The position numbers were made by a program, and so were the translations under genes. The notes below the pieces were generated by a model, which was not told the origin of the DNA, ran no database searches, and saw only the letters and a program-made list of their open reading frames with translations. From Candidatus Heimdallarchaeota archaeon (GTDB lineage: Archaea; Asgardarchaeota; Heimdallarchaeia; Heimdallarchaeales; Kariarchaeaceae), in the NCBI GenBank assembly GCA_015523565.1, contig WAKA01000118.1, forward strand, positions 1 through 10,371: a DNA stretch of 10,371 nucleotides. The letters run 5' to 3'. This document shows, piece by piece, positions 1,163 to 7,847 of this stretch (positions are counted from its first letter, which is position 1; every line of letters begins with the position of its first letter).

Positions 1163-1627
1163 CTATTCCACACCCCTTTTCATAAGAATCACATCCCTTA
1201 TTTGAAGTGGCAACATTACAAGAAGTGAAAGGACAGTAAACATTTGCAAAAGGAATATTCTATTCATTGCAATGAAGACAAGGTCAAAAATGAGGGTGAC
1301 CAGTAGGAAAGTCGCATAAAAAGCCTGTTTTGGCCATAGGGAACCATTGATCAGGAAATAGTCCACCATGGCATTCAATCTCAGCGACCTTACATTGTAT
1401 TCGGGTCTTATGACATAGGTGTTGTTAGTATTCTTCATGACATAGCCATCCTCGACCAATTTTGAGAGATGATAACTAGCATGAGATGCTGTTTTCAAAC
1501 CGAGCCCATGCCGCACTTCTGTGGGACCGACCTCCCTGCCAACTTTCAGCAGGTAAACAAACACCTGAAGCCTCATCCCCGTAAGGTTGGAAAAGGACCC
1601 GTTCCCCCCATCAATTCCCTTTATCAT
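1163..1627 (-). CDS. Membrane-anchored winged-helix (ArsR-like) transcriptional regulator, 154 aa
   Basis: N-terminal wHTH pattern LQVFVYLLKVGREVGPTEVRHGLGLKTASHASYHLSKLVEDGYVMK, followed by two C-terminal hydrophobic helices (AFYATFLLVTLIFDLVFIAM; IFLLQMFTVLSLLVMLPL). Starts 6 bp after the upstream stop (TGA-TCGAGG-ATG). Confidence 0.85.
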   Translation of the reverse strand: MIKGIDGGNGSFSNLTGMRLQVFVYLLKVGREVGPTEVRHGLGLKTASHASYHLSKLVEDGYVMKNTNNTYVIRPEYNVRSLRLNAMVDYFLINGSLWPKQAFYATFLLVTLIFDLVFIAMNRIFLLQMFTVLSLLVMLPLQIRDVILMKRGVE

Positions 1628-1633
1628 CCTCGA

Positions 1634-2500
1634 TCATCCAGAACGAGTATTTGAAAAAAGTTCATGTACCTTTGCTACTGCATTGTCAAATGCAGTTATT
1701 GGTGAAAGGTACAAGGGGTCAAAAGGATACGGGATCACAGGCAACGGGAATTCACCCCAAGAATAAGATACCAAGGCATCCCAAAGGAATTCAATATAAA
1801 CAACAACACCTTCGCCAAGCAAATTTGAATCAATTCGGAGTTCAATTCCAGTGCCGTTTTCATAATAGATGTCAAAAGAATAGCCAAAGTTTCCGCCGCC
1901 TGCCAATGGATCAAACGAGGACCAATCCCAATCGACTTCTCCTGTTTCATTCACACCATCGGTAATTAACCAATTGATCTGTTGAATGTCTGAATCAGCA
2001 TAGGAAGCAGTGTAATTGGATATACGGAGATCATCAGGGTATCCTCCAGAAAAGTTGGCAAACCAGACATAGGCAGACCATGAAGAGGAATTAATGCGAG
2101 TCAAGTGTATATCCTTGTTCCATCCACCGAAATCAGTTTCATTGATGATAATGGTGTAGTTGAAATTAACTCGCATATACACAGCTGTTTCATAATTTTT
2201 TTGGATTTGAGCAGCCAGCAAAGAAACCCGATCCAACGGGTTGTCGGTTTGGTTATCATTGTCATTTTTTGTCTTATTGCCAGTCCAGTTATTGGAAGGA
2301 ATTTGACCGTCATCTGATGGTAAGGTGGGCAGAGTAGGTTCTGTGGTCAAATCCCCTTTGTTTTCGGGGGTGTTCATATAATTATCCACTGTGAAAGCAG
2401 TGCCTATAAGGATTAAGGTCATCCCAAGACCAAGCAGGATGCCTTTAAGGTACTGCATTCTTCGCGTCTTCAAAATTTGGAGCTCAATTTGGCGTTCCAT
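1634..2500 (-). CDS. Single-pass membrane-anchored extracellular glycoprotein of unknown function, 288 aa
   Basis: Basic N-terminus, one TM (GILLGLGMTLILIGTAFTV), a Pro/Thr/Asn/Asp-rich linker, then an aromatic-rich acidic domain. I count 10 N-x-S/T sequons (NWT, NKT, NQT, NYT, NET, NSS, NFS, NYT, NET, NGT). Confidence 0.85.
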   Translation of the reverse strand: MERQIELQILKTRRMQYLKGILLGLGMTLILIGTAFTVDNYMNTPENKGDLTTEPTLPTLPSDDGQIPSNNWTGNKTKNDNDNQTDNPLDRVSLLAAQIQKNYETAVYMRVNFNYTIIINETDFGGWNKDIHLTRINSSSWSAYVWFANFSGGYPDDLRISNYTASYADSDIQQINWLITDGVNETGEVDWDWSSFDPLAGGGNFGYSFDIYYENGTGIELRIDSNLLGEGVVVYIEFLWDALVSYSWGEFPLPVIPYPFDPLYLSPITAFDNAVAKVHELFSNTRSG

Positions 2501-2522
2501 GTCCTATAATTTTTCGGCGGTC

Positions 2523-2530
2523 TATTTATA
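2523..2530 (-). promoter_or_regulatory. Archaeal TATA box of the glycoprotein/wHTH operon
   Basis: Minus strand TATAAATA lies 23-30 nt upstream of ATG2500, consistent with a leaderless or near-leaderless transcript. Confidence 0.65.
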
Positions 2531-2537
2531 TTATGGC

Positions 2538-2577
2538 TTTGAATGTCGTATTCAAAGGTTTGAAAGTGCAATTCAAA
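2538..2577. promoter_or_regulatory. Tandem palindromic operator, TTTGAA-N7-TTCAAA x2
   Basis: TTTGAA-TGTCGTA-TTCAAA (2538-2556) and TTTGAA-AGTGCAA-TTCAAA (2559-2577), 21-bp period, starting 7 bp upstream of the TATA box. Confidence 0.75.
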
Positions 2578-2834: not shown

Positions 2835-3038
2835 ATGATGATTGCTTTTGGAGGACTGATGTTTTCAACATCCTATATCCTCATGCAGTTTGGATTTGTC
2901 CTAAGTCTTTCTGTGTTCATTGACACGTTTTTTGTCAGGTCAATCCTTGTTCCAGCCATCATGTCCATCAGTGAAAAATGGAACTGGTGGCCCACTTCTT
3001 TTGAGCATCCATTACAACTTCAAGAAGAAGCTAGATAA
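2835..3038 (+). pseudogene. C-terminal remnant of an MMPL/RND family transporter
   Basis: MIAFGGLMFS...QFGFVLSLSVFIDTFFVRSILVPAIMSISEKWNWWP matches the last two TM helices of MMPL proteins (GF-x-L...D-x-F-x-VR-x-x-LVPA...WNWWP). An in-frame TAA at 2829-2831 and the lack of an upstream ORF mean only about 65 aa of a normally much longer protein remain. Confidence 0.8.
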
Positions 3039-4718: not shown

Positions 4719-4741
4719 CAATACAAAGCTAACTAAAATTG

Positions 4742-6010
4742 ATGTTCAAAGGAGAACCCATTGCCATATGGTCAATGGTTGCCGCATTCCTGTCATTTTT
4801 GGCATTGCAATTATATGGAATTCTGTTTGGATTGGGGATAATCACGGGGTTTTATCCAATCCACCTTCATCTTGCCTTTTTCGGATGGATATCCTTTCTC
4901 ATATTGGGGGCGGAGCTCCAGTTCTTCAGGGCAATTCTTGCAATCAGGAAATTTGAACCGGAATGGCTACGATGGGTCTTCTTGGTTTCAATGTATCTTT
5001 CATTGTTCTTCACCATTTTGAGTGGTTGGATAGATTTACTTGCAGAGGCCTATATCCTTCTCATTTTGGTCACTATTGTCCACACCTATTGGCTTGCCAA
5101 ATATTCCCGATCCCGATTTTTCAAGTTCCCCCTTCAGTTCTATCTTGCAGGTCAAGGGTTTTTCATTCTTGGCTTGGCACTCTATGCAAAATATGTCCCT
5201 GGTCTGAACATTGACTTTCATGGCCTTGCCAGATGGCAGGTGATCCATATCTTTGCAGTGGGTTGGATCAGCTTGGTGTTGCAGGGGGCAGTTACAAGGA
5301 TACTTCCGATGTTTCTGAATAGGGCGATCGATCGTTCCTATAGACCAAAGGTTGACCAACACTTTTGGTTTTCATTTATTTCCTCTTCCCTTTTTATTGC
5401 AGGGGTTATCACAAAATCCCTGCCCCTGACCTCAATAGGAGGTACACTTTGGTTCGTGAACTGGATATTGGTAGGGTATTTCATGTTCAAAAGCCTTCGG
5501 ACAACAAATCGCGGGAAAGAAATCACATATCCCATTACAGGCCTTTTCTTCTTGTGGGGTTTCATATGGTTGGCAATTGGGGCGACGTTGGGCTTCATCT
5601 CCGCTTTCGTTGAATTCGGCGTCCTACAAAACCCCCCACCACGTGCCTTTCATATTCATACATCACTCCTCTTAGGCCTTTCCTTCATCATGATGGGAGC
5701 CTACCACAGAATATCGGTTTTTCAGGTCTATACGATACTATATAGCGGAAAAAGAGGAGAAAGCAGTCTCGGAAAAATGCTCCACGAAAAGCTAATGATC
5801 ATTGTTTTTGCCCTTTGTACAGTCGGTGCCCTGATTGCAGTAACGGGGTTTTACCAATCCAGCTATGCACTAGTTGCCCAAGGGGGCATATTCTATTTTT
5901 TAGGGACTCTTGTATTATTTGGTCAGATTCTTTGGGTTATGAAGCAATATGTTTCCAAAAAAGGAAATGCCATTCCCTTCTACCTTAAGTCAACAGAGAA
6001 AAAGGGTTAG
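4742..6010 (+). CDS. Polytopic (about 12 TM) His-motif membrane protein, NnrS-like / heme-copper oxidase subunit I fold
   Basis: Three internal repeats: HLHLAFFGWISFLILGA, VIHIFAVGWISLVLQGA, HIHTSLLLGLSFIMMGA (His near residues 44, 170, 307). The HPxVY and HH CuB motifs of true oxidases are absent. ATG4742 is preferred over TTG4739. Confidence 0.75.
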   Translation: MFKGEPIAIWSMVAAFLSFLALQLYGILFGLGIITGFYPIHLHLAFFGWISFLILGAELQFFRAILAIRKFEPEWLRWVFLVSMYLSLFFTILSGWIDLLAEAYILLILVTIVHTYWLAKYSRSRFFKFPLQFYLAGQGFFILGLALYAKYVPGLNIDFHGLARWQVIHIFAVGWISLVLQGAVTRILPMFLNRAIDRSYRPKVDQHFWFSFISSSLFIAGVITKSLPLTSIGGTLWFVNWILVGYFMFKSLRTTNRGKEITYPITGLFFLWGFIWLAIGATLGFISAFVEFGVLQNPPPRAFHIHTSLLLGLSFIMMGAYHRISVFQVYTILYSGKRGESSLGKMLHEKLMIIVFALCTVGALIAVTGFYQSSYALVAQGGIFYFLGTLVLFGQILWVMKQYVSKKGNAIPFYLKSTEKKG

Positions 6011-6264: not shown

Positions 6265-7353
6265 CTAGACAAGATCCAATATCTTCTGCCAGACAGTGTG
6301 GCTTGTCCCAAATATCTCTGCCGCATCAATATCACTGACTTTTTCATTATGGTATGCATTTGCCACAGTACTGACAAATGTGTCACCGAATTCTGAAATT
6401 ATTACTTTACTTCTTTGTGGACCACCCTTTCGATTGTTTCTTTGTTTTTTGAACCGATCATTATATCTTTCCAAGAATTGATTATAAATTTCCCAATCGA
6501 TAATTTTTTTCTTTAATAAAGCTACAGCAGTGGCATGTTTGCTAATTTTGAGTTGGTTTGACAGGGTTCGGATTTCCTTGAAAATGTCATTTGTGCCCGT
6601 ATTTATAGTTATATTTTCAGGGATTAATACACAAGCGGCAAATTCTTCACACCAATATTCAACTGCATTTTCCTCCGATGTAAAATCATCAAGAATCGAC
6701 TCACCAATCAATAAATGACCCAATTCATGAAACAGAGTAAATGTCCTGGATCCCTCACTTTCATTCTTGTTGACAACAATGACATAAGGTGTTCCCATTG
6801 AAATTGTAAATCCGCGAAGTTCTTCCAAGGAGAATTGTAAAACCAATATCCCGAATTCCTCAAATTTTTGCCTTAACTTCTTGAAAAATTCGTTTCTGTC
6901 TTTAGTTTCTCTTCGTATTTTTGGGATATCCATTTGCCCTATAATTTTTTTTGCGGCTTCTTTTGGGGAAATCTTCCGAGGGATTTTTGGAAATTCAAAT
7001 TTTGTAACACCCCCCAACTCTTGGAAAACTTCTTGTACATGGTATGCTTCCCTTATTGCATCCTTCAACTTTCTTGAAAGTTTACCTGTGAATTTCCTAG
7101 ATCTAGGTCGTGGTGGGAATTCAGGAGGGGATGAAAGGAAAAACACAGAGATGGGGATTGCAAACCTATTTGAAATTTTTCTAAGTTTAGATATGGTTAC
7201 GTTGATTTCCTCATCATTTAAGTTAATATTTAATTGGCTGACTTCTTCGTCTGACAGTCCAATGTATTCCTTGATTTTTAGGAACACATCTTTTTTAACA
7301 GTAACTTGGATAGAAGTCACATCAATATGATTCTCATGAGCATATTTGAACAT
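6265..7353 (-). CDS. ImmA/IrrE (COG2856) Zn-metallopeptidase with degenerate N-terminal XRE-type HTH, 362 aa
   Basis: RTFTLFHELGHLL (HExxH), downstream EYWCEEFAACVLIP, GFTI...PYVIVVN; N-terminal T-x-x-KLRKISNRFAIPISVFFLSSPP resembles the end of an XRE HTH. Confidence 0.92.
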   Translation of the reverse strand: MFKYAHENHIDVTSIQVTVKKDVFLKIKEYIGLSDEEVSQLNINLNDEEINVTISKLRKISNRFAIPISVFFLSSPPEFPPRPRSRKFTGKLSRKLKDAIREAYHVQEVFQELGGVTKFEFPKIPRKISPKEAAKKIIGQMDIPKIRRETKDRNEFFKKLRQKFEEFGILVLQFSLEELRGFTISMGTPYVIVVNKNESEGSRTFTLFHELGHLLIGESILDDFTSEENAVEYWCEEFAACVLIPENITINTGTNDIFKEIRTLSNQLKISKHATAVALLKKKIIDWEIYNQFLERYNDRFKKQRNNRKGGPQRSKVIISEFGDTFVSTVANAYHNEKVSDIDAAEIFGTSHTVWQKILDLV

Positions 7354-7355
7354 AT

Positions 7356-7847
7356 TTAGAACACCACACCAATCTCAACTAAATAATCCAGCAATTTTAA
7401 TGAGGGAATGCCATACTTTGCCGCAATCCAAGGGATTTTTTCAGGAGCATTCTTTTCTTCAGTTATTATTTTAACAGTTGGTTTTTCCAGAAAAATGTTA
7501 ATGTTATTAGAATAGGCAATAGCCAAAGAAATAATATGGGGGTCTGCATGATATTTTACCTTTTTATTCCCTTTTGAGGCCAGCTTAGGGAATTCATTAA
7601 GGAGATCTTTCATTGTGGCATACATCTCAACATTTTCTACGATTGCATTTGGAAATTTTGAGACCCAATCATAAATCAATGGATTTCCCAACGTCAACTC
7701 AAAATATACTTCTTTTGGCAGTACCAATCTCTTTGTAATGAATTCCTTTTCCATAGCCTTCCAAAATTTGTCGAATTTAAAATATCCTTGGGGATAATGC
7801 TTTAGTGCAGACAGGCTATTTGTATCAATGATATAGATTTTTCTCAG
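7356..7847 (-). CDS. DUF4411-type PIN-domain ribonuclease (putative toxin), about 163 aa; the start is upstream of the ORF-track call
   Basis: The frame is open upstream of ATG7754: LRKIYIIDTNSLSALKHYPQGYFKFDKFWKAMEK...EVYFEL...HADPHIISLA...IITEE...KIPWIA, giving the full PIN acidic set (DTN, E, ADP, TEE). The best start candidate is CTG7847 after AAGGGGGA. The stop is 2 bp before the ImmA/IrrE start. Confidence 0.85.
   Translation of the reverse strand: MRKIYIIDTNSLSALKHYPQGYFKFDKFWKAMEKEFITKRLVLPKEVYFELTLGNPLIYDWVSKFPNAIVENVEMYATMKDLLNEFPKLASKGNKKVKYHADPHIISLAIAYSNNINIFLEKPTVKIITEEKNAPEKIPWIAAKYGIPSLKLLDYLVEIGVVF

Follow-up and report, generated by a model that had tools for sequence, protein, structure and literature searches.

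The 10,371-nt contig WAKA01000118.1 of Candidatus Heimdallarchaeota archaeon (assembly GCA_015523565.1; Asgardarchaeota, Heimdallarchaeales, Kariarchaeaceae), analysed over its whole length and referred to here as the window, carries on its minus strand two adjacent genes, A and B. Gene A encodes a sequon-rich surface protein anchored by its N-terminus, and gene B a membrane-tethered protein with a predicted winged helix-turn-helix (wHTH). We place the A-B pair among the transmembrane transcription regulators, as a variant of this known class in which the regulator has a membrane partner encoded beside it. The pairing is conserved within the order, in both search directions, and across the phylum the conserved unit is B beside a gene for a membrane-anchored protein, rather than B after A. 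The palindromes upstream of A are a conserved, locus-specific element. Taken together with the predicted fold of B, they make DNA binding by B and autoregulation of the operon probable, and on the same sequence evidence we lean towards B being a membrane-tethered regulator that controls the A-B operon.

Linkage of B to genes for membrane proteins

The two genes, their spacer and the parts of their products are, in window coordinates:

1163..1627, minus strand: gene B, coding for a membrane-tethered winged-helix protein of 154 aa (stop codon counted in the start coordinate)
1169..1330, minus strand: B predicted transmembrane hairpin (helices aa 100-120 and 124-153; outer loop of three residues, aa 121-123)
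1331..1402, minus strand: B juxtamembrane linker and beta hairpin, aa 76-99 (hairpin 90-99)
1409..1579, minus strand: B predicted wHTH, aa 17-73, with recognition helix TASHASYHLSKLVEDGYV (ArsR/SmtB-like signature)
1628..1633, minus strand: spacer TCGAGG, 6 bp, from the A stop to the B ATG
1634..2500, minus strand: gene A, coding for an N-anchored, sequon-rich surface protein of 288 aa (stop codon counted in the end coordinate)
1637..2233, minus strand: A folded ectodomain, aa 90-288, two-lobed alpha/beta in the model, seven sequons
2234..2380, minus strand: A stalk, aa 41-89, rich in Asn, Thr, Pro and Asp, disordered in the model, three sequons
2381..2443, minus strand: A membrane helix, aa 20-40, glycine-rich (hydropathy peak aa 20-38; model helix 2-43)
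2444..2500, minus strand: A cytoplasmic tail, aa 1-19 (MERQIELQILKTRRMQYLK), basic

The spacer ends in a Shine-Dalgarno-like GAGG just before the B ATG and has no room for a promoter, and A and B are best explained as one operon. This two-gene layout, with its coordinates and 6-bp gap, is the one proposed in an initial annotation made from the sequence letters alone.

Relatives of B were found in 36 of 41 genomes of the order, at one to four copies each. Of the 31 loci retrieved, 25 have a gene on the same strand whose end falls -14 to +24 bp from the start of B. Its product is usually 229-290 aa long with a single N-terminal helix, or else longer, and 21 of these upstream proteins are members of the A family. 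When the 41 related genomes were searched with the A family instead, 22 of 28 matches lay directly upstream of B, one formed a tandem A-A-B arrangement and five were orphans (one carrying a stop and two partial). In four genomes the whole A module forms the last part of an open frame of 576-859 aa, fused behind a right-handed beta-helix domain of the NosD-like type and a further membrane helix, and B again comes directly after it:

G012:C9, G015:C1:632242, G020:C1:721956 and G032:C211 (L023, L024, L027 and L033): NosD-A fusion loci

The initial annotation had named a lack of conserved linkage among homologues as one result that would refute its proposal; the linkage is in fact conserved, and the gaps are short. 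The window genome also holds two B paralogues, and in each case B shares a 4-bp overlap with the end of a different, unrelated gene. One of these genes encodes a protein with an N-terminal transmembrane (TM) helix, and the other is cut at its 5' end. Beside one paralogous pair we noted a gene for a 318-aa protein (L002:373-1329 (+), G000:C153) with a gelsolin-like stretch seen by eye.

In the phylum as a whole, 135 of the 201 genomes sampled contain B relatives, some of them as many as 11. From outside the order, 40 B loci were sampled, and genes within 350 bp of B were counted as adjacent. A membrane-protein gene was adjacent to B in 36 of the 40 loci, and membrane proteins made up 61% of B-adjacent genes vs 31% of other genes at the same loci (odds ratio 3.4, calculated over related genomes that are not independent). 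The initial annotation had suggested a survey of such neighbourhoods for adjacent single-pass extracellular proteins; the adjacency of a membrane-protein gene holds, but the partner is not always single-pass and its orientation varies. In genomes of family f10 the partner is an N-anchored DUF3160 protein of about 750 aa (Pfam E 1e-166 to 1e-205), usually divergent from B. Other partners are a two-helix protein of about 100 aa up- or downstream, or an N-anchored protein of 174-750 aa upstream.

DUF3160 has been annotated as a 'secreted enzyme' (PMC4158269). The DUF3160 proteins paired with B (L036-L050, L059, L062 and L074; genomes of families f10/f9) have a conserved cytoplasmic tail, RAxDxxTKRKMxAGG. 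Among B-unlinked DUF3160 proteins the RAxDxxTKRKM tail was similar in one copy and not in another (six proteins compared in all).

The two proteins

The model of B has a mean predicted local distance difference test (pLDDT) score of 87.5, with the membrane helices above 90, and hydropathy agrees with it in giving two helices, at 103-121 and 131-149. Because these helices are joined by three residues only, B is predicted to have no external domain. In Foldseek the cytoplasmic domain matched the wHTH of IclR, DtxR, MarR and Zur (probability 1.0, root-mean-square deviation 1.2-2.8 A over about 60 aa), and the sole match of the B family profile among solved structures was ArsR 6j0e (E 1.4e-3). Among 60 aligned B members, Pfam matches were to LexA_DNA_bind (34), HTH_20 (29, best 3.6e-10) and HTH_5 (16), and B relatives matched NF033788 at E 2e-5 to 2e-3, under its cut-off. 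The recognition helix has an ArsR/SmtB-like consensus, S-x-S-x-x-x-x-H-L-x-K-L with an invariant H53, that is kept family-wide. Pfam matches across the family, the fold match and the ArsR profile match thus agree in predicting that B contains a winged helix of the DNA-binding type. Among close orthologues the linker (71-100% identity) and the beta hairpin (90%) are conserved at or above the level of the wHTH; G95 and P99 are conserved family-wide, and GxxxP appears in the consensus of the 60 sequences.

Searching with a profile of B and its relatives gathered 688 clusters (50% identity), of which 269 had E <= 1e-10; almost all are 135-175 aa long and were matched over their full length. The family appears to extend beyond Asgard archaea, as one cluster of longer relatives is labelled Nitrosomirales by its source. 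Four longer relatives (P0072, P0103, P0149 and P0150; 284-314 aa) have two extra membrane helices and no sensor domain; between the extra helices runs a presumably external loop, rich in proline and about 70 aa long.

Gene A matched no Pfam or NCBIfam family. Its conservation was assessed with four close homologues and with an order-wide family profile of 17 sequences. The protein has a single hydrophobic helix at about aa 20-40, preceded by a basic N-terminal tail that, by the positive-inside rule, would lie inside the cell. The tail is the most conserved part among close orthologues (79-95% identity), followed by the ectodomain (62-75%), with the linker at 20-35%. The stalk is poorly conserved, and pLDDT is below 50 over aa 23-89. 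The ectodomain is modelled confidently over aa 90-285 (pLDDT about 80-96) and has a conserved SPxSAFD motif near the C-terminus. Past the helix, the 248 remaining residues contain 10 N-X-S/T sequons, compared with 3.5 +/- 1.6 in shuffled sequences (n=5000, P about 6e-4), and sequon density is 4.0 per 100 aa vs 0-0.8 in four other window proteins. Three sequons (N114xT, N184xT and N215) are conserved across the A family. A type IV pilin-like signal peptide, considered for the K-G before the hydrophobic stretch, was rejected since the motif is not kept in orthologues.

A Foldseek search of the PDB returned no match to the A ectodomain at E <= 1e-3, and LolA-like chains matched only at E > 1e-3. 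In a wide structural search the top score, Z 7.5 for the putative lipoprotein 4r7r, falls inside the background range, and Mago comes next (Z 6.5); in the ESM Atlas the ectodomain lies near unnamed clusters at 0.90-0.91 that share few features with it. The modelled ectodomain thus has no confident match to a recognisable sensor fold, and we do not claim a new fold. The initial annotation had described A as single-pass with a large sequon-rich external domain, and B as a wHTH protein with two TM helices, almost no outer loop and no sensor domain of its own. The single helix and sequon excess of A bear this out, as do the model, hydropathy, and fold and family matches of B; the structural search that it suggested for the A ectodomain gave no confident match.

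Promoter elements and candidate operators

Three elements precede gene A:

2523..2534, minus strand: TATA-like box ATAATATAAATA, about 28 bp ahead of the A ATG, partly conserved in a relative
2538..2556: proximal palindrome TTTGAA-N7-TTCAAA, whose right arm abuts or overlaps the position of the transcription factor B recognition element (BRE)
2559..2577: distal palindrome TTTGAA-N7-TTCAAA, 21 bp (two helical turns) upstream of the proximal one

The distance from TATA to ATG suggests a leaderless or near-leaderless A mRNA. The pattern TTTGAA-N7-TTCAAA occurs six times in the 3.57-Mb genome, two of them here, and a reversed-pattern control occurs three times; two palindromes side by side are not expected by chance, because the genome has only six. 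A relative at G001/L034, whose A and B proteins are 59% and 74% identical to those of the window, has an identical 30-bp block, CTTTCAAACCTTTGAATACGACATTCAAAG, that includes the proximal palindrome. Of the distal palindrome only the promoter-proximal arm is kept there, and the DNA further upstream is unalignable. The upstream palindromes to which the initial annotation had pointed are in this respect both conserved and specific to the locus. A further copy, at G000:C9:24284-24302 (L076:1201-1219), is a possible second target of B; the gene about 60 bp downstream of it encodes a protein of 379 aa whose N-terminus has a signal-like helix.

Related repeats were found at B genes in other lineages. 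The element of genus g11, present in 11 genomes directly upstream of TATA, reads TGTTCAAA-N3-TTGTACAA-N14-TGTACAAA; its three TGTWCAA units, about 11 and 22 bp apart, are invariant across the 11 genomes while the spacers drift. L006 has TTGAAC-N6-GTTCAA and L007 has three GTTCAAA units. Of 12 intergenic regions between B and the f10 DUF3160 genes, 8 contain two or more copies of TGTTCTA (9 for GTTC[AT]A).

In the g11 A-B loci (L010-L022), the 25 bp that precede the start of A also contain a conserved hairpin of the 5' leader, GAAGT-N5-7-ACTTC (alignment columns 128-150), followed directly by a Shine-Dalgarno-like GGTG motif. Its stem changes on both sides (CGAAGT/ACTTCG, TGAAGT/ACTTCA, GAAGTT/AACTTC). 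The window operon has no leader hairpin of this type.

Several observations weigh against B as the regulator acting at these sites. The window's own B falls under every Pfam cut-off (DUF7347 and HTH_34, E about 0.005-0.009), so that its assignment as a wHTH protein comes from its relatives and the model. The operator footprint amounts to effectively one independent relative, L005 and L034 being the same sequence, and of the other four palindromes in the genome one is promoter-like and the rest lie within or at the ends of coding regions. The window half-site TTCAAA matches the GTTCAA, TGTACAA and GTTCTA of other lineages only partly. On the side of B as the regulator, GTTC[AT]A is about 5- to 12-fold enriched in partner promoter regions relative to the rest of the loci, with P values overstated by shared ancestry, as many of the loci are orthologues within one genus. 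Recognition helix and motif also covary, ASHAQYHL occurring with GTTCAA-type sites and PSVASHHL with GTTCTA-type sites, as direct readout predicts, but this covariation is confounded by phylogeny.

An alternative is that B is not a transcription factor: its winged helix would make protein or RNA contacts, A and B would form a structural complex, and another factor would bind the palindromes. Some proteins use a winged helix for purposes other than DNA contact, binding of B to DNA is itself a prediction, and the sub-threshold Pfam scores of the window B are in keeping with such a role. This reading is nevertheless very improbable, given the ArsR/SmtB-type signature retained throughout the family with its invariant histidine and the helically phased repeats beside B genes in three divergent lineages.

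Known systems, proposed mechanism and genomic setting

Transmembrane transcription regulators (TTRs) are defined by a predicted DNA-binding domain and at least one transmembrane region, and act from the membrane; a survey by Demey et al. (2023, PMC10269533) reported them from 367 out of 404 species of archaea. B agrees with both parts of this definition by prediction, through the wHTH at aa 17-73 and the two membrane helices. The text of the TTR survey makes no mention of Asgard archaea (PMC10269533), and a domain-based census would probably miss the window B because it lies under the Pfam cut-offs. Pairing with a membrane-anchored partner gene is consistent for B, whereas it is not part of the TTR definition. 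In the literature we found no publication on this Asgard B family or its pairing.

ArnR and ArnR1 of Sulfolobus acidocaldarius are, like B, archaeal proteins with an N-terminal HTH and two C-terminal transmembrane helices (PMC6396743). ArnR acts from the membrane on cis boxes at its target promoter (PMC6396743), and the same is proposed for B. However, in ArnR the HTH is separated from the membrane helices by a HAMP-like and a sensing domain (PMC6396743), where B has only aa 74-99. The targets of ArnR are archaellum/pilus genes, and no pairing of ArnR with a gene for a surface protein is described (PMC6396743); it is compared with B by architecture, not by sequence.

The bacterial co-component systems VtrA/VtrC, ToxR/ToxS and TcpP/TcpH resemble A-B in consisting of two adjacent genes and no kinase (PMC9214523, PMC11323476), and both have a membrane-bound DNA-binding protein together with a single-pass partner with an outer domain (PMC9214523). 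In contrast to B, whose outer loop has three residues, the co-component regulator has a periplasmic domain and forms a heterodimer with a lipocalin-like partner (PMC9214523). The regulator gene comes first in the bacterial systems (PMC9214523) and the partner gene first in the archaeal A-B. Furthermore, B has an ArsR-like wHTH and two membrane helices, compared with the ToxR/OmpR-type wHTH. A-B is thus not a member of the ToxRS/VtrAC group, and the likeness is a functional analogy only. The analogies to ArnR (PMC6396743) and to ToxRS/TcpPH (PMC9214523, PMC11323476) drawn in the initial annotation are correct.

With the ArsR/SmtB family B has the signature and the fold in common, and its best sequence matches are those to HTH_20, HTH_5, NF033788 and ArsR 6j0e. 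ArsR/SmtB repressors typically bind inverted repeats as dimers. As to their metal site, B has no cysteine at all, and it lacks both the soluble metal-sensing core and the C-terminal dimerisation helix, having a membrane hairpin instead. In SdpR/SdpI of Bacillus subtilis, an ArsR-family autorepressor is captured without a kinase by a membrane protein that senses an external signal; SdpR is soluble and reversibly sequestered, whereas B is permanently tethered. One B relative matched the SdpR family at E 0.0078, far under the family cut-off, and we draw on this system as an analogy only.

In the mechanism that we propose, the ArsR-like winged helix of B would lie in the cytoplasm, tethered by the short conserved linker and the beta hairpin to a two-helix membrane hairpin. 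B dimers would most likely bind both TTTGAA-N7-TTCAAA palindromes, which abut BRE/TATA, on the same face of the DNA, and would so control, by activation or repression, the production of the glycosylated surface protein A and of B itself. The tether would hold B at the membrane, most likely closing a kinase-free loop between the membrane and expression of the surface protein, and the activity of B would probably be set by the co-encoded anchored partner or by the state of the membrane. The partner may act on B through its conserved cytoplasmic tail or its membrane helix. Physical coupling of A and B is somewhat less likely than not. Prediction of an A+B complex (score 0.07, mark 0.32) is not counted as evidence for or against it, and the roughly 22 A-B pairs at hand are too shallow for co-evolution analysis.

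The initial annotation went further and made A the sensor, an interpretation that as a whole is partly supported. The A ectodomain would bind an external ligand or surface and signal through its helix or tail to B, switching the operon; in a variant, A would shield B from regulated proteolysis, again giving a kinase-free pathway from the outside to the genes. We find this doubtful in either form, and sensing of an external ligand by the A ectodomain is taken by itself unlikely. The operon is tight, the pairing is conserved and B has no sensor of its own. A also keeps its cytoplasmic tail better than any other part and has a glycine-rich helix, the linker and hairpin of B are as conserved as the wHTH, and the module of tail, helix and ectodomain stays whole even behind the NosD-like domain. 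Partners across the phylum share anchorage and not ectodomain (down to about 100 aa), which would favour contacts in the membrane or on its cytoplasmic face. Against this, ligand binding by A and contact between A and B are purely putative, and the ectodomain matches no known sensor fold. Partners may be divergent or downstream, unlike the overlapping regulator-first ToxRS/VtrAC cassettes (PMC9214523), and no protease gene adjoins the pair, the window having neither a site-2 protease nor a rhomboid gene. A search for longer B forms found none in which B is fused to an ectodomain or sensor on one polypeptide, which is weak evidence. Partner family and orientation vary across the phylum, and given this diversity and the lack of a fused form, the data can be explained without direct signalling contact between A and B. 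The variable partners fit a regulator with a membrane-protein target or partner at least as well as a sensor with its transducer.

If the partner were cargo only, B would answer to the state of the membrane or envelope, as has been proposed for ArnR, and A would be a regulated, co-transcribed surface protein that makes no contact with B. The diversity of partners (A family, DUF3160, NosD-like fusions and small membrane proteins) would fit this, as would the divergent f10 layout with repeats in the common intergenic region, which is typical of regulator-target pairs, and the further palindrome upstream of another secreted-protein gene. However, this would leave unexplained why the A tail and the B linker and hairpin are conserved and why 36 of 40 loci have membrane-anchored neighbours, including tiny two-helix proteins with no obvious role as cargo, and we regard it as quite improbable. 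A broader reading, which we offer as a speculation with the chances rather against it, is that Asgard archaea possess a modular kinase-free pathway. Interchangeable surface proteins (A family, DUF3160, beta-helix fusions) would signal via tail or helix to dedicated tethered ArsR-like regulators acting on TGTWCAA/TTCAAA-type operators in the promoters of the surface-protein genes, and the pathway would be an archaeal counterpart of the bacterial co-component systems with an independent origin.

Hardly any work has explored how Asgard archaea, the prokaryotes most closely related to eukaryotes as far as is known, transduce signals, and experimental knowledge of membrane-bound regulators in archaea comes mainly from ArnR. 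Occurring in about two thirds of sampled Asgard genomes, nearly always beside a gene for a membrane-anchored protein and with a phased candidate operator, the B family would, if a tethered regulator as we favour, be a major unrecognised route from the cell surface to gene expression. This is directly testable, as the predicted operator, the soluble wHTH fragment and the partner tail are each short enough to be synthesised with ease. Single-contig assemblies exist for two relatives in the order (G015 and G020).

The window genome consists of 3.57 Mb in 233 contigs and is about 90% complete. Its genes include one for an actin of eukaryote type (456 bits) and one with an ESCRT-II Vps25 domain (76 bits), which 14 control genomes lack; both fit its placement among Asgard archaea. 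The stretch is present in four DNA runs of a single metagenome study of hydrothermal vents, in full in two of them and at least in part in the others.

Other genes of the window were noted in passing. A 423-aa multi-pass membrane protein (4739-6010, plus strand) has a 74%-identical orthologue upstream of A-B at L034:2011-3396, on the other relative strand, which indicates a local rearrangement around A-B. At 6265-7754 (minus strand), an IrrE/ImmA-type M78 peptidase (362 aa, E 2e-14) directly follows a DUF4411 protein (132 aa from the first ATG); the two resemble a toxin-antitoxin or defence-type pair and are unrelated to A-B. Between the A promoter and an NDH-2 gene lies a lone 67-aa ORF (2835-3038, plus strand) with two hydrophobic stretches, which from its sequence gives the impression of a C-terminal remnant of a larger membrane transporter.

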